A DNA stretch of 32,000 nt from Pasteurella multocida (GCF_900187275.1 NZ_LT906458.1:1230001-1262000); one strand, 5' to 3'; shown: positions 7,023 through 18,173, counted from the first letter of the stretch. Made by a program: numbers and translations. The notes: generated from the letters alone by a model not told the origin.

Positions 7023-7097
7023 TTACGCACTAACCCGCACACTATTGGTAATAATAGTGGTGGTCATAATCATAGTAATCACAGTGCGTTTATTCAT
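7023..7097 (-). CDS. thrL: thr operon leader peptide
   Basis: Manual translation gives MNKRTVITMIMTTTIITNSVRVSA* (24 aa, 6 Thr + 4 Ile). It lies directly upstream of the attenuator hairpin and thrA. It is too short for the ORF track. Confidence 0.75.
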   Translation of the reverse strand: MNKRTVITMIMTTTIITNSVRVSA

Positions 7098-7973: not shown

Positions 7974-8014
7974 TCTCTTTTTCTTGATTTATAAATAAAG
8001 ATACTGTTCAAAAT

Positions 8015-8043
8015 TTGACAAATTAATAATGGCTTTTTATTAT
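8015..8043 (+). promoter_or_regulatory. Candidate sigma70 promoter for the first island operon
   Basis: TTGACA (8015..8020), N17, TATTAT (8038..8043), about 220 nt upstream of the 8265 ATG. Such matches arise easily by chance in AT-rich DNA. Confidence 0.3.
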
Positions 8044-8264
8044 TGATTGTATTAAAAATATACAAAAAAACATTATTAATAGAAATACAATCTCTGATAA
8101 CTATACTGATATAACCTAAATTATTCTTACCGTCAGATAGAGGAAAACTGTCTACATAACTCATAAAAGAAGAATCTCTATCAGGACTCATAAAATAACA
8201 TTGTTACTCTATGATATTTAATAATATTAAGGTGTATATCTACCAAATTTAAGATTCTCTAAAA

Positions 8265-9374
8265 ATGGTATTTATTATGTGTGGAAAAACAAAAAACTCA
8301 GCCTTGATTACAGCTCTAGCCTTCCACTATCAAGTATTGGTTGGCTTAGATAAATGTTTTAAATTAAAAGAAGGAGAGAGTATCTTTTTTGAAAAAGATG
8401 GCGATGTAAGTTTAGTTGGACAAAATGATTCATCATCACTACAAATGGAGATAAAAAATTACTCAGATAGTTTAACTGATAATCATCTAAACTTCTGGAA
8501 AACATTAAAAAATTGGCTACAACCCGAGTTTAACCAAGCTAAATATGGCTACTTAATATTACACACAACACAACCTTTTGGTGTTTCATCTACCCTCAAA
8601 AATTGGAATACTATAGATATTGAAGAAAGACTCGAGCTGATCCGTAAAATCTGTTCTAAAAATGAATCGAGTACATCAGAAGTAGCAAATATACAAAAAG
8701 AAATTATTTCTTCTGACGAGCAATTACTAAGAAAAATACTCGGAAAAATTTATTTGTATACAATCGCAGATAATGGATATGAATTAATAGAAAAAATTAA
8801 ACGCGAATTAAAAGGAATACCTGACAATAATTTATCTTGTTATTTAAATGCGTTGGTTGGCTACCTATATGGAGAGTCAAAAAGTGCTTGTTGGGAAATA
8901 AAATACGAAAGATTCAAGGAGATTCTTATCCATCTTACATCTACCTATGCTCAAAAAACATTTACTTTCCCTAATTTTACTGGTCAATCTGCATCAGAAG
9001 ATGAAATTGATAAAAATAAAACTAAATTATTTGTAACAAAAATCCTAGATATCGACTATGAAGATGTATTGCCAGAAGCTATTGGTAATTGGTTAGAAGT
9101 TGTCAATTCATTAATGCTTGATTTAGATAACTCTCCTATATACCAAAATATGACTAATGATTATCAAAGACAATTAATATCTATGTTCAAAAGTCGATTC
9201 TCTACTGCGAGTCGTAATAAACACAACCCAAAAGATTTATACGATAAGGTAATAGGAACTCCCCCTTCTAGTATGAAAGATCAAGGTACCCCGCATCTAG
9301 CGTATAAAAATGGATTGCTACACCATGCAATGGATGATAGTTTACAAGGACTAAAATGGGATTGCTTAAAATGA
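8265..9374 (+). CDS. Effector of a Lamassu-type II / ABC-3C-like system: N-terminal Cap4/DUF4297-like PD-(D/E)xK nuclease, C-terminal part unassigned
   Basis: Residues 20-64 read FHYQVLVGL...IFFEKDGDVSL-x11-LQMEIKNY. This gives a YQ motif, then E43/D45/D47, then E62-x-K64 (nt 8391..8456), which is the pattern I associate with Cap4-nuclease/DUF4297 domains. It is the first gene of a three-gene operon with overlapping ORFs. Confidence 0.65.
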   Translation: MVFIMCGKTKNSALITALAFHYQVLVGLDKCFKLKEGESIFFEKDGDVSLVGQNDSSSLQMEIKNYSDSLTDNHLNFWKTLKNWLQPEFNQAKYGYLILHTTQPFGVSSTLKNWNTIDIEERLELIRKICSKNESSTSEVANIQKEIISSDEQLLRKILGKIYLYTIADNGYELIEKIKRELKGIPDNNLSCYLNALVGYLYGESKSACWEIKYERFKEILIHLTSTYAQKTFTFPNFTGQSASEDEIDKNKTKLFVTKILDIDYEDVLPEAIGNWLEVVNSLMLDLDNSPIYQNMTNDYQRQLISMFKSRFSTASRNKHNPKDLYDKVIGTPPSSMKDQGTPHLAYKNGLLHHAMDDSLQGLKWDCLK

Positions 9375-9799
9375 ATACTATCAATGCCTTATATTTCATA
9401 AAATATAATCCTTTTAAATATGCTAAATATATTTATAGTTTTTATAAAAGCTTAGAGCCTTACAATAATAACTTACTATTATCTCCTTTAATTATTCCAC
9501 TTTGCACCCATCCTACTTATTCTAAAAAGAAGATAACATCTAGAAGTACTTTATATACTATCTTTCAAGATAAGAAAGAGCTTTATGATCTACAAGAACG
9601 GGTTAATTATTTCAGAGAGTTAACATCAGAAAGCATTCAGTTTTGCCTAGCTAATGATTGGCTATACTTTGATTCAGAAAAACTATCTTTATATACTAAT
9701 GAAGTAGATATTGAAATTGAGCCTTTCCCTAAAAAATTAGGCGACTTATTAAAAGATTATTCCGTAGGAGAAATCTATTTTAATTTAGGAGTAAAATGA
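9356..9799 (+). CDS. Small middle component (LmuC / ABC-3C MC-like adaptor)
   Basis: 147 aa. AAGGA (9346..9350) lies 5 nt before the ATG at 9356. The ORF overlaps the upstream gene by 19 nt (alternative ATG at 9371 would give an ATGA overlap) and the downstream gene by 4 nt (ATGA at 9796..9799). The call rests only on size and position between effector and ATPase; I recognise no motif. Confidence 0.5.
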   Translation: MGLLKMNTINALYFIKYNPFKYAKYIYSFYKSLEPYNNNLLLSPLIIPLCTHPTYSKKKITSRSTLYTIFQDKKELYDLQERVNYFRELTSESIQFCLANDWLYFDSEKLSLYTNEVDIEIEPFPKKLGDLLKDYSVGEIYFNLGVK

Positions 9800-11805
9800 T
9801 GAAAACATTAATTCATGAAATTGGAATTGTAGATATTAGAGATTATTTACATAGAGTAAAATTAAAAGAAGGATTAAATGTAATAACAGGAAAATCATCA
9901 ACAGGGAAAAGTGCACTAATTGAAATTTTTGATTATTGTTTCGCCAGTTCTAAAAGTAACATACCTAAAGGAGTTATAACAGAGTCAGCAACATTATATT
10001 ATCTTGTCTTACAAATTAATCAGTTATTTTTTGTGTTAGGTAGAGAAGCCAACTCTAGTAAGTGCTTTTTTAAGATTGAAAATAGCAATCCTTCCGATAA
10101 GTTAGGATCTAATTACTTTGATAATAATCATTTCTTATCACTTAATAATTATAAGAATAAACTCAATGAAATATTTATTGATATTAATGATGTTGATGAG
10201 TCTGCTATCACTGTAGAATACAGAGGAAAAAAATCGCCCACCCCATCTATTCGTAGCTTTATGTCATTAATTTTACAACATCAAAATTTAATAGCTAATA
10301 AGCATGCTATTTTTTATAGATTTGATGAAAAGGAGAAAAGAGAACAGGTCATATCCCACATGAAAATATTTCTTGGATTTGTTGATCAAGAATTTTATAT
10401 TCTATCGCAACGTAAAGAAAAAATCGAAATGGAAATAAGAAGGATAATTAGAGAAAATAATATACTCAGTAAAAACCTAGAAGGAAAAAAGTATGAATTA
10501 AAAGAAAGATTAAAGATTTTTTATTCAGTTATTGGAGTTGATGAAAAAATATTATCTATTGATGAGGTTATTTCAGATCCAATTAATTCAAAAATAAAAT
10601 TAGACAATACCATTCTAGCTCAGAATATAAACCACACATCAGATAATTTAAATATACATTATAATAAATTAATAAAAGAAAGAGATAGCGAAATTTCAAA
10701 ACTTAGAGAACTACAAAGAAGAAAAACAGCTATAGAAAAAACCCTAGAGGACAGGGAAGAGTTTTCTAAAAACATTGAACGTTCTTATTTCCCAGAAAGT
10801 ATAACTATTGCTAAAACAGTTTGTCCGCTCTGTTACTCCGACAATAATAAGCTAACAGAAAGAGCTAAACAGCTTGAACAAGCAATTAAAATTTTATCAG
10901 AAGATTTTCAGTTTAGTAATGGGATTACTTCTGAATTAGAAATATCATTAAATAAAACAAAAGAGGAAATAACAAATAAAAGTAACATTATAAAAAAATT
11001 AAATCGTGAGATATTAGATATAAGAACAAAAAACAAAGAACTATCTGATAAGATTAGCTTTAATGAACAAGTATTAATGAAAAAAATAGAAATATTTTTC
11101 TTATTAGATATGTTATCATCCTTCAAAAAGATAGATACAAGTGAAAAAGAAACATATCAAAATGAGCTTGAAGATATAAAGCAAAAATTAAAATTATACA
11201 ATATTGAAAATAGAGTTATTGAAGCAAATAGCAGAATTAATATAATCATGAAGGAAATTGGTTCAAAATTTGATTTCGAAACGAGCTACCAACCAATAAA
11301 TCTAAAATTTTCTCTAGATAGCTTTGATTTATTTCATCAAGACAATAAAAAAGGAAATATTTATTTAAGAACCATGGGGAGTGGTGCCAACTGGTTATAT
11401 TGTCATATTACACTATTTCTTGCTCTACATCGATATTTTATAGAACTAGACCATAAAGGAATAAATTGTTCAATTCCCTCTCTTCTATTTTTAGATCAAC
11501 CAACTCAAGTATATTTTCCTAACTTTAAATTTGATAAGAGTCAAGAATTTAATCAAAATATGATTAAAGAATTGGAACACAATCCTGAAACTTTTGATGA
11601 AGATATTAAATCCGTAGAGAATTTATTTAAGCAACTAGCCATATACTGTGATGAATTAAAAAATGAATTTGGTTTTTCTCCTCAAATTATTGTGACAGAT
11701 CATGCTGATAATCTGAACTTAGGAAATAAGTTTAATTTTGAGGATTTTGTTAACGGAAATAGATGGAGAACTAGAGGATTAATAGAGCCTATACCTAATA
11801 TTTAA
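9796..11805 (+). CDS. Rad50/SMC-like ABC ATPase with long coiled-coil insert (LmuB / DUF3732 / DdmC-like)
   Basis: 669 aa. Motifs: Walker A GKSSTGKS (res 32-39, nt 9889..9912), signature-like MGSGAN (res 527-532), Walker B LLFLDQP (D567), and H-loop VTDHAD (H636). Heptad-like K/E/I/L-rich sequence spans about residues 200-500, with CPLC at 343-346. AGGAG lies 4 nt before the ATG. Confidence 0.8.
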   Translation: MMKTLIHEIGIVDIRDYLHRVKLKEGLNVITGKSSTGKSALIEIFDYCFASSKSNIPKGVITESATLYYLVLQINQLFFVLGREANSSKCFFKIENSNPSDKLGSNYFDNNHFLSLNNYKNKLNEIFIDINDVDESAITVEYRGKKSPTPSIRSFMSLILQHQNLIANKHAIFYRFDEKEKREQVISHMKIFLGFVDQEFYILSQRKEKIEMEIRRIIRENNILSKNLEGKKYELKERLKIFYSVIGVDEKILSIDEVISDPINSKIKLDNTILAQNINHTSDNLNIHYNKLIKERDSEISKLRELQRRKTAIEKTLEDREEFSKNIERSYFPESITIAKTVCPLCYSDNNKLTERAKQLEQAIKILSEDFQFSNGITSELEISLNKTKEEITNKSNIIKKLNREILDIRTKNKELSDKISFNEQVLMKKIEIFFLLDMLSSFKKIDTSEKETYQNELEDIKQKLKLYNIENRVIEANSRINIIMKEIGSKFDFETSYQPINLKFSLDSFDLFHQDNKKGNIYLRTMGSGANWLYCHITLFLALHRYFIELDHKGINCSIPSLLFLDQPTQVYFPNFKFDKSQEFNQNMIKELEHNPETFDEDIKSVENLFKQLAIYCDELKNEFGFSPQIIVTDHADNLNLGNKFNFEDFVNGNRWRTRGLIEPIPNI

Positions 11806-11873
11806 TAAACTAAATATAAACACTTTCACAGTATAATGCTTTAATAGCTCATTTATTTTCACTAAAACACAAA

Positions 11874-12434
11874 ATGAACTCAGAATTAAAACAAGATCTC
11901 ACGGAATTTTTACGCCTATCATTAGTCGATGATGAATTTATCGATCAATATATCGACGATATTACATCCCTTTTTGAAGAGCAGGGGGAATGGGCTGATG
12001 AGTATGTGTATTGGCAAGAAAAAGGGATTTTGCCAGAAGATCCTGAACACCAATATTATGATGAGTATTTCGACTGGGATGAAAATGCATTTGTTGTGGA
12101 TGGGAAAAGTTACCCAAGCCTGAGTTTGGCAGATATTCTCGAACAACAAGCCCTTTCTAAATTGACTGATTGGAAATTCGATGCGGAAGAATTGGAATAT
12201 GCGGTCAATAGTATGCTGACCAATAAAATCAAGATCCAATGCCCCGAAGAAACCTATAATGATGCACTCTACCCTTACGTTCAACAAGCACTTGCCCCAC
12301 AAAATTATACCCTTTGTAATTATTGGAACGGCAATGACAGCTGTTTATTTATGATTTTCTCTTTTGAGGAAGAGTGTATTCGAGAGATTGCTGGCAAGTG
12401 CAATATTTCAATTTGTGCGGTTGATGAAGTATAG
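11874..12434 (+). CDS. Hypothetical highly acidic protein (no family assigned)
   Basis: 186 aa with 41 D+E versus 10 K+R (hand count) and many W/Y/F. TATAAT at 11832..11837 lies 37 nt upstream, but there is no obvious SD. GC is visibly higher than in the neighbouring island genes. Confidence 0.55.
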
Positions 12435-12577
12435 TGTAGTTTAGTATTGCATCTATAGCACTCGCCATCAATGAGATCGACAGTGTAAAGAATTGGAAGG
12501 CTATTTTTCGCGCGAGGAATTATGCCAAATAAATATAAAATAAACATTATATTAATAAAAAAATAAGGAGAAATAAT

Positions 12578-13849
12578 ATGCAACCAGAACAAAAAGAAAC
12601 CGAAGAATCTATAAAAATCACATTTCTTTCTACAGATATTCCAAATAAGGCTCCTATCAATTTAAGTACTATAAAAGATCCAGACAAACTCCAAGAATAT
12701 AAAAACGTACTTCAAATATCACTTAATAAAATTTTAGACGCTGAAAATATTATTGTTTTAGCTGGTTCAGGCACTTCTTTGACATTCAATACTTCACAAA
12801 ATCACCCCGCTCCAAGTATGGCTGACCTGTGGGATTATTGCAAAGAGAAAAATGCTAGAGTTTTTAATGAGATTGAGACATATACAAATTACAATGATTT
12901 TGCTGAAAAATGGACTGATAAACAAGGGCAAGAACATATTTCAAAGGATATTGAGCTTTTGCTGTCACGCTGTGATACTTTTTTGTCTTTACAAAATTTA
13001 TCTACTCATCGATTACAGCAACTAAAAAAATTTATTAAAGACGCGAAGTTAGAAATACTAAAACAAACTAACTTCACAGGAAAAATCTCAGACCCCAAAA
13101 ACTGGGAACATCATAACAAACTACTAAGGGTCTTAGGAAAAAGGCAACCTAAACAAAAGCGCTTAAAACTATTCACTACTAACTATGATTTAGCATTTGA
13201 AACCGCAGCATCTAACACTGGAATGATTGTAATCGATGGTTTTGAATACGGTAGACCATATCGCTTTAACCCCGCATGGTTTCATTATGATATTGTGCAT
13301 AAAACTCAAGCTTCAGATAAAGCAAATTCTTATCTTCCCAATGTCTTCCATCTTTATAAAATCCATGGTTCTGTAGATTGGTTGAGAACAGAGCAAGGTA
13401 TTCAAAAAAGAATTTCGGATTCTCAAGAAGGAGAACCAGTCATTATTTATCCAAGTAGTACTAAATATCAAACCTCTTATGAATCTCCCTACCTAGATAT
13501 GATGTCCAGCTTTTTAGAAGCAGTCCAAAAACCTAAAACAGCAATTTTATGTCTTGGATTTGGTTTTAATGATAAACATATAAATAATGCGATTACAATG
13601 GCACTGCGTACAAATCCAGAATTACTACTCATGGTGAGTACTCGTTCGTTTTTTGATGAAAAAGGCTCTTTTAATAAAGATATTCGAGAATTACTGAAAA
13701 AAGCAGTTGCAGCTGGCGATTCAAGAATCACATTAATAGACTGTGATTTTGCTACATTCGTAGAACAATTACCAGAAAGAAATAAACCTACGCCAGAAGA
13801 ACAAATTCTTCAGTTCTTCCAAAAATTTAATACGGGAGAAAATAAATGA
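12578..13849 (+). CDS. SIR2-family NADase-like protein (SIR2 partner of a SIR2-HerA defence pair)
   Basis: 423 aa. Motifs: IIVLAGSGTSL (Rossmann G-x-G), FTTNYDLAFE (N202) and YKIHGSVDW (H263), the defence-type SIR2 motifs. A strong SD AAGGAG (12565..12570) lies 7 nt before the ATG. Confidence 0.85.
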   Translation: MQPEQKETEESIKITFLSTDIPNKAPINLSTIKDPDKLQEYKNVLQISLNKILDAENIIVLAGSGTSLTFNTSQNHPAPSMADLWDYCKEKNARVFNEIETYTNYNDFAEKWTDKQGQEHISKDIELLLSRCDTFLSLQNLSTHRLQQLKKFIKDAKLEILKQTNFTGKISDPKNWEHHNKLLRVLGKRQPKQKRLKLFTTNYDLAFETAASNTGMIVIDGFEYGRPYRFNPAWFHYDIVHKTQASDKANSYLPNVFHLYKIHGSVDWLRTEQGIQKRISDSQEGEPVIIYPSSTKYQTSYESPYLDMMSSFLEAVQKPKTAILCLGFGFNDKHINNAITMALRTNPELLLMVSTRSFFDEKGSFNKDIRELLKKAVAAGDSRITLIDCDFATFVEQLPERNKPTPEEQILQFFQKFNTGENK

Positions 13850-15588
13850 GTAATGAATGGTTTTCACCATATGATTTAAAAAGACGCATAGGAAGTTTAA
13901 TTGAAATATCTGCAACTGAAGCAAAAATAAACCTTACTAAAGCCGGAACGGGAGAACAAGTATGGCTATTGGGAAACCGTATTCCCATTGGAGAGGTTAA
14001 TGAGTTTATTTTTATTGATTGTGGGCAAACATCTATTTTAGGAAGAATGATTCGAGTATGGTTAGAAAATGGTGAACGTCTTAGCGTTGATAATTTAGAT
14101 GAAAATTATGCTAATAATAACCCTATTGGCTTAGTTCAACTATTGGTTAGTGTTGATGTAGAAACAGGATTTAATCATAGAGGAATTAGACAATACCCTA
14201 AATTAGGCGCTCAAATTTATTCTGCTCATCCAAATTTAGTTTCTCTTTTAGCAGAAGGGAAATTAGCTAGTGATAATAATGAATTACAACTACCAATTGC
14301 TGAAATTCCTAATGATTCATCTATTACAATTCATCTTACTCCCGAAAAATTATTTGCTCGCCATTGTGCTATTTTAGGTTCTACTGGCGGAGGGAAAAGC
14401 TATACGATGGCAAATATAATTAATAATGTAAAAGAAAATAGAGGAAAAATATTATTATTAGATGCAACAGGAGAATATGAAAATTTACTTTGTGAAAGCT
14501 ATTATGTGGGAGAACATCCTCAAACTAAAGAGGATGACAAAAATAAAGTGACATACCCGCATTGGATGTTTACTGATTCAGATATAAGAGCTTTATTAAG
14601 ACCATCTGCTGGAAGCCAAGCACCAAAATTAGAAGAAGCTATTAGAAGTTTGAAAATAGTGCACTACCTCAACAGAAATCCAGAAATGAAAACTAAATAT
14701 GCTCTGTCTATACAAAATCAAGTGAATTTAGAGAAATTGGAGAAACTTAAAAAGCCATTCGAAGATATAATACAATCAATAACGTCCCCTTTTTCAGATA
14801 TTCCATGGACATTCCATGCATTGGCAGAGCAGATCATTCAAGAATGTGTATATCCAACAGGAGGGACATATCAAACTCCAGATCCCACTAAATGGGGAAA
14901 AAGAGCGGATAATGATATTGGATATTGTCTAAATCTAATTTCTCGCATTAAGGCTATGCAAAATAATCCTCACTTAAAATGGATGTTAGATAGCGATCCG
15001 AAGCTGACTAAGATACCTGATATCATAGATAATCTATGCAAAAATCAAACAGATCCAATAATACGGTTTGATCTATCTTTTGTTCCATTTGAAGAAAATG
15101 CAAGGGAAATATTAGTTAATACCATCGGTCGTAAATTATTAGATTGTGCTCGCAAAGGTGATATTAGCTATGAAAATCCATTGCTTGTTTTTATTGATGA
15201 ATCTCATCAATTTTTAAATAAATCTATTGGTGATGACATCAGCAAAATGAATCTTACCGCTTTTGGAGATATTGCAAAAGAAGGGAGAAAATATGGTTTA
15301 AATCTAGTGATGGCAACACAGCGACCAAGAGATATTCCAGAAGATGTTTTAAGTCAAATTGGGACATTGATTGTTCATCGATTAACTAATGAGAAAGATC
15401 AGGAAATTGTAAAGAAAGCAGTTGGCTCCATCGATAATCGCTCAGCTGCTTTTTTACCTGTACTCGGGCAAGGAGAGGCCCTTTTACTTGGGGTTGATTT
15501 TCCTTTTCCGATGAAAGTAAAAATCAAAGTGCCTCAAGTCGCCCCTTTATCTAGAAGTGCTTCATTTTCTAAAGTGTGGTCTTCCTGA
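13846..15588 (+). CDS. HerA/FtsK-like hexameric ATPase (HerA partner of SIR2-HerA)
   Basis: 580 aa. It has a HAS-barrel-like N-terminus, Walker A GSTGGGKS (K184, nt 14377..14400), Walker B LLVFIDESHQF (D451-E452, nt 15181..15201) and ATQRPRDI. An ATGA start/stop overlap with the SIR2 gene sits at 13846..13849. Confidence 0.88.
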   Translation: MSNEWFSPYDLKRRIGSLIEISATEAKINLTKAGTGEQVWLLGNRIPIGEVNEFIFIDCGQTSILGRMIRVWLENGERLSVDNLDENYANNNPIGLVQLLVSVDVETGFNHRGIRQYPKLGAQIYSAHPNLVSLLAEGKLASDNNELQLPIAEIPNDSSITIHLTPEKLFARHCAILGSTGGGKSYTMANIINNVKENRGKILLLDATGEYENLLCESYYVGEHPQTKEDDKNKVTYPHWMFTDSDIRALLRPSAGSQAPKLEEAIRSLKIVHYLNRNPEMKTKYALSIQNQVNLEKLEKLKKPFEDIIQSITSPFSDIPWTFHALAEQIIQECVYPTGGTYQTPDPTKWGKRADNDIGYCLNLISRIKAMQNNPHLKWMLDSDPKLTKIPDIIDNLCKNQTDPIIRFDLSFVPFEENAREILVNTIGRKLLDCARKGDISYENPLLVFIDESHQFLNKSIGDDISKMNLTAFGDIAKEGRKYGLNLVMATQRPRDIPEDVLSQIGTLIVHRLTNEKDQEIVKKAVGSIDNRSAAFLPVLGQGEALLLGVDFPFPMKVKIKVPQVAPLSRSASFSKVWSS

Positions 15589-15591
15589 TCC

Positions 15592-15620
15592 GATGACGCT
15601 CGTCAAAGGCGAGCGCCATC
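15592..15620 (+). terminator. Hairpin immediately after the HerA stop (possible terminator or island boundary)
   Basis: gatgacgctcg / tcaaagg / cgagcgccatc forms an 11-bp stem with one A-C mismatch, but the following T-tract is weak. GC content returns to core-like levels here. Confidence 0.3.
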
Positions 15621-15713
15621 CATTTCTATTAATAGATTACTCACAAACTCTTCCCTTGCCTTTTCCCCAATTCCCTCTAAACTAACCCCATTTTTCACTT
15701 TCAACAAAAAGCA

Positions 15714-18004: not shown

Positions 18005-18081
18005 GGAGTGGTAGTTCAGCTGGTTAGAATACCTGCCTGTCACGCAGGGGGTCGCGGGTTCGAGTCCCGTCCATTCCGCCA
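18005..18081 (+). tRNA. tRNA-Asp (GUC), copy 1
   Basis: 77 nt: GGAGTGGTAGTTCAGCTGGTTAGAATACCTGCCTGTCACGCAGGGGGTCGCGGGTTCGAGTCCCGTCCATTCCGCCA. It has a cloverleaf, anticodon loop CTGTCAC and an encoded CCA. Confidence 0.95.
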
Positions 18082-18096
18082 ATTTTATTCTACTAC

Positions 18097-18173
18097 GGAG
18101 CGGTAGTTCAGCTGGTTAGAATACCTGCCTGTCACGCAGGGGGTCGCGGGTTCGAGTCCCGTCCGTTCCGCCA
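18097..18173 (+). tRNA. tRNA-Asp (GUC), copy 2
   Basis: 77 nt, differing from copy 1 at two positions (5 and 68). It is near-identical to E. coli tRNA-Asp as I remember it. Confidence 0.97.

Follow-up and report, generated by a model that had tools for sequence, protein, structure and literature searches.

A 32,000-nucleotide stretch of the Pasteurella multocida chromosome (GCF_900187275.1, NZ_LT906458.1:1230001-1262000), here called the window and used for all coordinates, carries at 8265 to 11805 three overlapping genes that, as judged from their sequences, form an intact and uncharacterized yet entirely typical short, or type II, Cap4 Lamassu system. Indeed, we consider it highly probable that positions 7974 to 11873 make up a self-contained, horizontally acquired lmuA-lmuC-lmuB defense cassette of the Cap4-nuclease/CTD7 plus MC3 plus DUF3732 class, with yggS on one side and a DUF6630 gene, a resident of the locus, on the other. 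An initial annotation, made from the DNA without database searches, had described a nuclease, a small adaptor, and an ATPase of Lamassu type II, and had equated that type with ABC-3C and with DdmABC-like systems. This equation agrees with the usage of Li et al. (bioRxiv 10.1101/2025.06.23.660979), in which type II Lamassu is ABC-3C and DdmA, DdmB, and DdmC are LmuA, LmuC, and LmuB, respectively. The further claim of an intact Lamassu member with a Cap4-type effector was also supported, in that the first protein matched the PADLOC LmuA model and a family profile, and its predicted structure matched LmuA first and Cap4 next. The defense-system models of PADLOC already recognize all three genes.

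The three open reading frames (ORFs) lie on the plus strand, as do the other features given below unless stated otherwise. They had been reported as overlapping frames of 369, 147, and 669 amino acids, and their exact coordinates and both overlaps could be read from the sequence. The first, lmuA (ORF1), spans 8265 to 9374 and encodes 369 amino acids when counted from the first ATG; lmuC (ORF2) spans 9356 to 9799 (147 amino acids), and lmuB (ORF3) spans 9796 to 11805 (669 amino acids). The ORF1/ORF2 junction reads ...AAGGACTAAAATGGGATTGCTTAAAATGAATACT; ORF1 ends with the stop codon TGA at 9372 to 9374, and, as ATG codons occur at both 9356 and 9371, the overlap is either 19 or 4 nucleotides. 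Gene callers place the ORF2 start at 9356, and an AAGGA is located 5 nucleotides upstream of that codon. The ORF2/ORF3 junction, AGGAGTAAAATGATGAAA, is an ATGA overlap at 9796 to 9799 with AGGAG just before it. At the local guanine-plus-cytosine (GC) content of 27.9%, stops are expected at 8.9% of codons, and the chance of open frames of 369, 147, and 669 codons is about 1e-15, 1e-6, and 6e-28, respectively. The frame given for ORF1 stood, but its length probably needs correcting, since the true start is most likely the second ATG, at 8277, which would yield a protein of 365 amino acids beginning with MCGKTKN. The N termini of homologs align at that position (consensus MSxxQTKNAALTT), and several assemblies annotate it as the start. 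Residue numbers for LmuA below follow the 369-amino-acid frame unless the 365-amino-acid numbering is named. All three genes run in one direction and each overlaps the next, and in four other genera, represented by Mannheimia, Actinobacillus, Vibrio parahaemolyticus, and Acinetobacter baumannii, the unit recurs with its overlaps in unrelated surroundings; together with the empty and occupied sites of sister taxa described below, these features mark a translationally coupled operon that moves as a unit.

ORF3 is LmuB, a short-type Rad50/SMC-like ATP-binding cassette (ABC) ATPase with a split head, a coiled coil of about 300 residues, and one zinc hook. Pfam DUF3732/LmuB_C (PF12532) matched residues 459 to 663 at 1.4e-51, and PADLOC LmuB (PDLC03859) matched residues 2 to 663, nearly the full length, at 2.1e-103. 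Solved LmuB chains were found with the single sequence, both from Salmonella (9hqu_A, 5.5e-30) and from Vibrio cholerae (9ny5_D and 9uxl_A, about 7e-29, the weakest being 7.9e-29), and a five-member LmuB profile improved the PDB matches to 3.6e-51 for 9hqu_A and 8e-50 for V. cholerae. The split head motifs noted in the initial annotation were present where it had placed them. The Walker A motif, G32-KSSTG-K38-S39, is encoded at 9889 to 9912 and falls opposite its counterpart in alignments with solved LmuB. The signature-like MGSGAN (residues 527 to 532) is at 11374 to 11391, and the variant Walker B motif LLFLDQP, starting at residue 563 and containing D567-Q568-P569, is at 11482 to 11502. The TDHAD sequence (residues 634 to 638), in the D-loop/H-loop region, is at 11695 to 11709 and aligns to the LDHA of solved LmuB. 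A feature unmentioned earlier is the putative zinc hook C343-P-L-C346, encoded at 10822 to 10833, which lies at the coiled-coil apex and aligns to the CPMC of Salmonella LmuB; CxxC zinc hooks have been described in LmuB (PMC12663957; bioRxiv 10.1101/2025.03.14.643221).

Conservation of these motifs was judged on five family members showing 47 to 51% identity. Residues G32 to G37 and S39, the hook residues C343, P344, and C346, the signature-like stretch M527 to N532, D567-Q568-P569, and T634 to D638 are invariant in all five. At the Walker A lysine, K38, four members agree and the Mannheimia copy has an arginine instead (GKSSTGRS); that protein may be an ATPase-impaired copy. IS3-family transposase fragments were seen directly downstream of the Mannheimia sp. 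lmuB gene (L002 9535-11529). A 5'-phosphate/DNA-end pocket consisting of K55, R152, K174, and H180 has been described in V. cholerae LmuB (PMC12663957). Its residues R152, K174, and H180 align with the invariant basic residues R153, R175, and K181 of the P. multocida LmuB, and the fourth, K55, aligns with K53, a position at which only the P. multocida protein has a lysine.

With ORF1 and ORF2 as single sequences, phmmer retrieved from the PDB only chance-level matches (Glu-tRNA ligase and TM0936), and profiles and structure prediction were therefore needed for those two proteins. On that basis, ORF1 is identified as a divergent LmuA, with a Cap4-type PD-(D/E)xK nuclease domain predicted at its N terminus and, at its C terminus, an ABC-3C domain of the CTD7 type for oligomerization and docking. 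PADLOC LmuA (PDLC03848) matched residues 9 to 338 at 2.5e-41. A profile of close homologs reached the solved LmuAs weakly (0.002 to 0.01). An exhaustive profile search with the LmuA family returned 630 clusters at 50% identity, 203 of them at an E value of ≤1e-30, and a 44-member LmuA profile built from these matched V. cholerae LmuA (9ny1_A) at 1.7e-15 and the Salmonella protein (9hqu_C) at 6.6e-12. Positions 63 to 372 of that profile align to residues 67 to 375 of the V. cholerae LmuA, that is, from just past the catalytic strand to the C terminus. When the 44 family members were searched with Pfam, CTD7 (PF20283) was recognized in 18 (best, 7.3e-8) and Cap4_nuclease in 2 (best, 0.004); among 30 close homologs, Cap4_nuclease (PF14130) matched 1, at 1.5e-5. 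The AlphaFold2 model of LmuA had a predicted local distance difference test (pLDDT) score of 82.7. Its top Foldseek matches were the LmuA nuclease tetramers 9hr5_C (3.5e-12) and 9nxx_D (1e-10), in full-length alignments, and the next were the Cap4 proteins 6vm5 (5.4e-4, probability 1.00), 6wam, 6vm6, and 7yia from CBASS, the cyclic oligonucleotide-based antiphage signaling system.

The nuclease signature that had been read in ORF1 was likewise found in place, with HYQ at residue 21, EKDGD at 43 to 47, and EIK at 62 to 64. The putative active-site codons, identified by conservation, are at 8391 to 8405 (E43-K-D45-G-D47) and 8448 to 8456 (E62-I-K64). Residues E43, D45, G46, D47, E62, and K64 are invariant across the 30 homologs, and E39, G42, D43, E58, and K60 in the 365-amino-acid numbering are invariant in the 44 family members, down to 24% identity. 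The lysine K64 is expected to be the equivalent of K57 in V. cholerae LmuA and of K68 in SalEnt LmuA. ORF1 itself is 99% identical to P. multocida proteins. Several homologs in Halomonas, Chromohalobacter, Natronospirillum, and Providencia records (e.g., P0008, P0054, P0090, P0101, P0103, and P0120) are labeled adenylate cyclase. Because of the Cap4-nuclease and CTD7 evidence, that label is almost certainly a propagated misannotation. A sub-threshold Pfam match of ORF1 to NUDIX_2 was rejected, as were NCBIfam matches to APH(2'') and GltX, which were at chance level.

ORF2 is LmuC, the small MC3-family middle component, here encoded between lmuA and lmuB, as sequence profiles and a structural model show. 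Pfam MC3 (PF20131) matched at 6.9e-29, above the gathering score, PADLOC LmuC matched at 1.6e-15, and a 26-member ORF2 profile reached the Salmonella LmuC chain 9hqu_D at 0.0036. The AlphaFold2 model (pLDDT, 84.3) had significant matches only to three solved LmuC chains, namely, 9hqu_D (template modeling [TM] score of 0.72, 6.9e-5), 9uxh_D (TM score of 0.72), and 9ny5_C. By analogy with the solved systems, LmuC would be a globular, winged-helix-like subunit that bridges the C-terminal domain of LmuA and the coiled coils of LmuB and contacts DNA.

The class to which the operon belongs can be read from these features. Haudiquet et al. (PMC12663957) described short Lamassu systems as having an LmuB of about 600 amino acids, a Walker B motif of the form hhhhD[Q/S/T/E], and zero to two CxxC hooks, as opposed to long Lamassu systems with an LmuB of about 800 amino acids and a Walker B motif of the form hhhhDD; the canonical Walker A motif is Gx4GK[ST]. 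ORF3, with a Walker A of G32KSSTGKS39, a Walker B of LLFLD567Q568, and a length of 669 amino acids, is of the short type. DdmABC and the SalEnt LmuACB constitute the NTD-Cap4-CTD7/MC3 family of ABC-3C systems (bioRxiv 10.1101/2025.03.14.643221). Because the P. multocida operon has each of the defining features, we place it in the same class as DdmABC and the Salmonella LmuACB, and it is thus not a new effector and adaptor combination. The initial annotation had raised that prospect for an LmuB scaffold; a Cap4-like N-terminal domain plus CTD7, MC3, and a short LmuB is the very set found in DdmABC and the Salmonella system.

One of the closest known systems is the LmuACB of Salmonella enterica serovar Tennessee (9hqu, 9hqx, and 9hr5; bioRxiv 10.1101/2025.03.14.643221), which has the same three components, belongs to the same class, and gave the best PDB match for all three P. 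multocida proteins. Both LmuB proteins carry one CPxC zinc hook, at corresponding positions, and both have the D-Q form of Walker B. The identity in structural alignments is 16 to 17% for LmuA and 20% for LmuC, and the P. multocida proteins are the shorter ones (LmuA, 365 to 369 versus 403 amino acids; LmuC, 147 versus 164 amino acids). In contrast to the Salmonella system, the one described here sits in a Pasteurellaceae chromosome and is known from its sequence. The DdmABC system of V. cholerae El Tor, or Lamassu Vc-Cap4 (9nxx, 9ny1, 9ny5, 9nyg, and 9uxh to 9uxl; PMC12663957), has the same architecture and gene content, with structural-alignment identities of 14 to 18% for LmuA and 14 to 16% for LmuC. 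CBASS Cap4 (6vm5, 6wam, 6vm6, and 7yia; Foldseek, 5.4e-4 to 1e-2, probability 0.97 to 1.00) shares with LmuA the N-terminal nuclease fold (DUF4297/Cap4_nuclease) and the principle of activation by oligomerization. Unlike CBASS Cap4, LmuA lacks a SAVED/CARF sensor domain, has an ABC-3C CTD7 as its C-terminal half, and, by analogy with the solved systems, would be activated by release from an SMC-like sensor and not by a cyclic oligonucleotide. Pfam and PADLOC gave no match to a CD-NTase cyclase or a SAVED domain in the operon or the window's island, and because of this and the CTD7-like C-terminal half of LmuA, CBASS was ruled out for the operon.

Several observations weigh against this assignment. 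The initial annotation had looked to Pfam profiles for all three proteins, and these succeeded for ORF3 (DUF3732) and ORF2 (MC3) but not for ORF1, which had no Pfam match of its own, Cap4_nuclease and CTD7 included (E value of ≤0.1), although it did match PADLOC LmuA. The solved LmuAs are very distant from ORF1, with 14 to 18% identity in structural alignments. The whole-chain TM scores of the LmuA model against them are only 0.35 to 0.49; low values are expected because the two domains are held on a flexible linker, which is not proof. The loop containing E62 is poorly modeled, with a pLDDT of <50 at residues 57 to 63. The zinc hook present in the P. multocida LmuB is absent from V. cholerae LmuB (PMC12663957), and details of the dimer geometry may therefore differ. 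A literature search found no paper linking Lamassu with P. multocida. Finally, in two other P. multocida assemblies, AP025519.1 (L016) and CP199345.1 (L017), a T5 tract has become T6 at 11487, within the Walker B codons (11482 to 11492), a change that would frameshift LmuB to 575 or 574 amino acids plus a short tail. We take this change to mean that Lamassu can be dispensable in P. multocida. The longer tract may reflect true inactivation of the gene, something akin to phase variation, or a sequencing error in the homopolymer.

One explanation prompted by the T6 allele, which splits LmuB at its Walker B codons in those two genomes, is that the operon survives in P. multocida only as a remnant, decaying or silent, that no longer gives defense. 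The autotoxicity of Lamassu on over-expression (PMC12663957) would favor such a loss, and no promoter is statistically convincing. We nevertheless regard a remnant as unlikely, as the frames in the window are all intact, the family-invariant catalytic and structural residues are present, and the 3.68-kb operon is 100% identical, with no substitutions, in several independent P. multocida genomes (L009, L012, L013, and L015), with 99.8% identity in L001. The operon DNA of record CP008918.1 is identical to the window, and the yggS locus has the same layout, with an identical YggS, in other P. multocida records as well. One further genome, CP040918.1 (L014 15200-18900), has lmuB and lmuC broken into small ORFs, through 12 one- or two-base homopolymer deletions and zero substitutions. 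Pseudogenization was rejected there in favor of an assembly artifact, and the T6 allele could be an error of the same kind.

A low-GC island extends from about 7974 to 15713 (30.9% GC, against 41 to 42% in the core and flanks), and it is composite, with 27.9% GC in Lamassu, 38.3% in the DUF6630 gene, and 33.7% in SIR2-HerA. About 40 nucleotides separate yggS from the downstream DUF6630 gene in Bisgaard Taxon 45 and Pasteurella sp. PK-2025, and no Lamassu is present there. Because these sister taxa show an empty yggS/DUF6630 site, the cassette of about 3.9 kb (7974 to 11873) is a discrete insertion; the sequence departs from the empty-site loci right after the yggS stop, and the match to them resumes only at the DUF6630 start codon. 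In Bisgaard Taxon 46, the cassette occupies the same yggS/DUF6630 site, with amino acid identities of 92% for LmuA, 98% for LmuC, and 96% for LmuB. The borders of the island showed no tRNA, integrase, or flanking direct or inverted repeats, and the cassette junctions displayed no target-site duplication. When phage and plasmid collections were searched with the island by megablast, nothing matched, and tblastn with LmuA against the same collections gave three distant partial matches only; known phages and plasmids therefore offer no evidence of carrying it. Among the PHROGs, only a weak match of LmuB to a phrog of unknown function was found.

The DUF6630 gene (11874 to 12434) encodes an acidic protein of 186 amino acids rich in W, Y, D, and E. 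Since it directly follows yggS in sister taxa without Lamassu, it is a resident yggS neighbor outside the cassette, and its candidacy as a fourth Lamassu gene was rejected because the empty-site loci keep it. No relatives of DUF6630 were found in PADLOC, PHROG, or the PDB, and no literature on it was found; distant relatives occur in Flavobacterium and Chitinophagaceae. Immediately downstream, in a second variable slot, is a complete two-gene defense system, SIR2-HerA, consisting of SIR2 (12578 to 13849; PADLOC, 1.7e-197) and HerA (13846 to 15588; PADLOC, 2.1e-290), which overlap in the ATGA manner. The genes from lmuA to herA are co-oriented and tightly spaced, there is no terminator-like hairpin after lmuB, and the whole block is co-inherited in most of the P. 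multocida genomes examined, all of which would fit a larger composite in which DUF6630 (11874 to 12434), SIR2-HerA (12578 to 15588), or both act with Lamassu. Such a composite is very unlikely. DUF6630 directly follows yggS in Lamassu-free sister taxa and has a GC content near the core value, Lamassu cassettes in other genera have neither DUF6630 nor SIR2-HerA adjacent to them, and Bisgaard Taxon 46 has Lamassu and DUF6630 but CBASS in place of SIR2-HerA. Moreover, SIR2-HerA is recognized as a stand-alone two-gene system, and a prophage (L011) and an insertion sequence (IS) element (L017) separate the blocks.

The three-gene Lamassu cassette is thus one occupant of a variable hotspot with two slots. 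Slot 1, between yggS and DUF6630, is empty or holds Lamassu, and slot 2, between DUF6630 and a DUF72 gene, holds variable cargo. In slot 2, P. multocida has SIR2-HerA; Taxon 46 has a type I CBASS with a cyclase and a 4TM effector (L021 6791-8666). Other cargo consists of a 215-amino-acid ORF of unknown function (L019) and a PAAR-domain gene with others (Pasteurella sp. PK-2025, L020). The 143-nucleotide DUF6630-SIR2 spacer is interrupted twice within 17 bp in other strains (window positions 12512 and 12528/12529): in CP199472.1 it borders on tail genes of a P2-like prophage (L011 14570-20465), and an IS200/IS605 element with Y1 TnpA and TnpB is inserted in it in CP199345.1 (L017 14553-16379). 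In GCA_029661885.1 (L001 16378-21098), HerA differs and has 567 amino acids, with a homology gap at window positions 14660 to 14889. The DNA to the right of HerA in that genome is replaced by other genes, one of them with an Acb2/Tad1-hairpin domain, of the anti-CBASS/anti-Thoeris sponge family, which suggests a prophage adjoining the defense island.

Like Rad50-Mre11 and SbcCD, LmuB has an ABC head interrupted by an antiparallel coiled coil with a CxxC zinc hook, and it would likewise sense DNA ends, but its coiled coil is much shorter and its Walker B is D-Q and not D-E. Although LmuB shares its head, coiled coil, and hook with Rad50/SbcC, weakly matches an SMC-related archaeal protein in NCBIfam (2.9e-5, well short of the cutoff), and belongs to a family proposed to have SbcCD as its evolutionary source (PMC12663957), it is hardly credible that this is a housekeeping DNA-repair operon and not an immune one, given that there is no Mre11/SbcD nuclease, that the partners are LmuA and LmuC, that the D-Q Walker B is typical of short Lamassu, and that the genes lie in a low-GC insertion absent from sister species and within a defense hotspot.

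The Lamassu systems solved from V. cholerae and Salmonella (PMC12663957; bioRxiv 10.1101/2025.03.14.643221; bioRxiv 10.1101/2025.06.23.660979) serve as the template from which we infer stoichiometry, trigger, and outcome for this one; the basic residues conserved at three of the four DNA-end pocket positions lend this template indirect support. A pair of LmuB protomers, linked through the CPLC zinc hook and with their coiled coils folded back, would hold one LmuC and one LmuA in an A1B2C1 complex, with the LmuA monomer held via its C-terminal domain and the nuclease thereby kept inactive. The basic pocket of the LmuB head, together with LmuC, would recognize free double-stranded DNA ends, such as those from replicating phage or plasmid DNA, and the variant D-Q Walker B site, by turning over ATP slowly, would gate the response. 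Released LmuA would then tetramerize via its C-terminal domains, and two Cap4-type domains (E43/D45/D47 and E62-x-K64) would form a composite active site. Indiscriminate DNA degradation would presumably follow, by which the infection is aborted or the plasmid eliminated at the expense of the cell. A joint reading that goes beyond this mechanism has, in our estimation, a slim chance of being right. It holds that the present LmuA clade, with its roughly 630 clusters at 50% identity, which the Pfam Cap4 model does not see and whose LmuB partner is short and zinc-hooked, may differ from DdmABC and SalEnt in its trigger or activation. It also holds that in P. multocida the T5 tract at 11487 may undergo recurrent on/off frameshifts and in this way adjust the autoimmune cost of the system, with the acidic DUF6630 protein perhaps modulating it.

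These results add an annotated intact Lamassu system to the veterinary pathogen P. multocida, where there is practical interest in phage therapy and plasmid tools, and identify as a probable Cap4-type LmuA a gene annotated as hypothetical protein, with homologs annotated as adenylate cyclase. The sister taxa supply a clean pair of empty and occupied sites for a Lamassu cassette, and the two-slot hotspot of yggS, DUF6630, and DUF72 is defined, with Lamassu, SIR2-HerA, CBASS, or other genes as cargo. The understanding of Lamassu itself is unchanged, its architecture, motifs, and probable mechanism having been established structurally in 2025, and what is chiefly gained is a corrected annotation together with a clear picture of the insertion site and hotspot.

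Candidate expression signals lie in the noncoding ends of the cassette. In its AT-rich leader (7974 to 8264), a promoter-like site, TTGACA-17-TATTAT at 8015 to 8043, matches at 11 of 12 positions and is the best in the region; a promoter scan showed no enrichment of such sites in the region over shuffled sequence, and the site stays a candidate only. An inverted repeat of 17 nucleotides (8022 to 8038 and 8064 to 8080; 88% complementary) overlaps this site and may be an operator or a regulatory hairpin. The 68-nucleotide trailer (11806 to 11873) ends at the DUF6630 start and contains a TATAAT box at 11834 to 11839; a terminator scan of it found no terminator-like hairpin. Two tandem tRNA-Asp(GTC) genes at 18005 to 18173, 16 nucleotides apart, lie 2.4 kb beyond the right-hand end of the island, and an Rfam scan detected only these two tRNAs. 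The flanking genes are thrA-thrB-thrC, yggS, the DUF72 gene, rnhA, dnaQ, the two tRNA-Asp genes, and der. On the minus strand, at 7023 to 7097, a 24-codon ORF that is annotated in other assemblies between thrA and yggS gave no Rfam match at the gathering threshold and presumably encodes the thr leader peptide.

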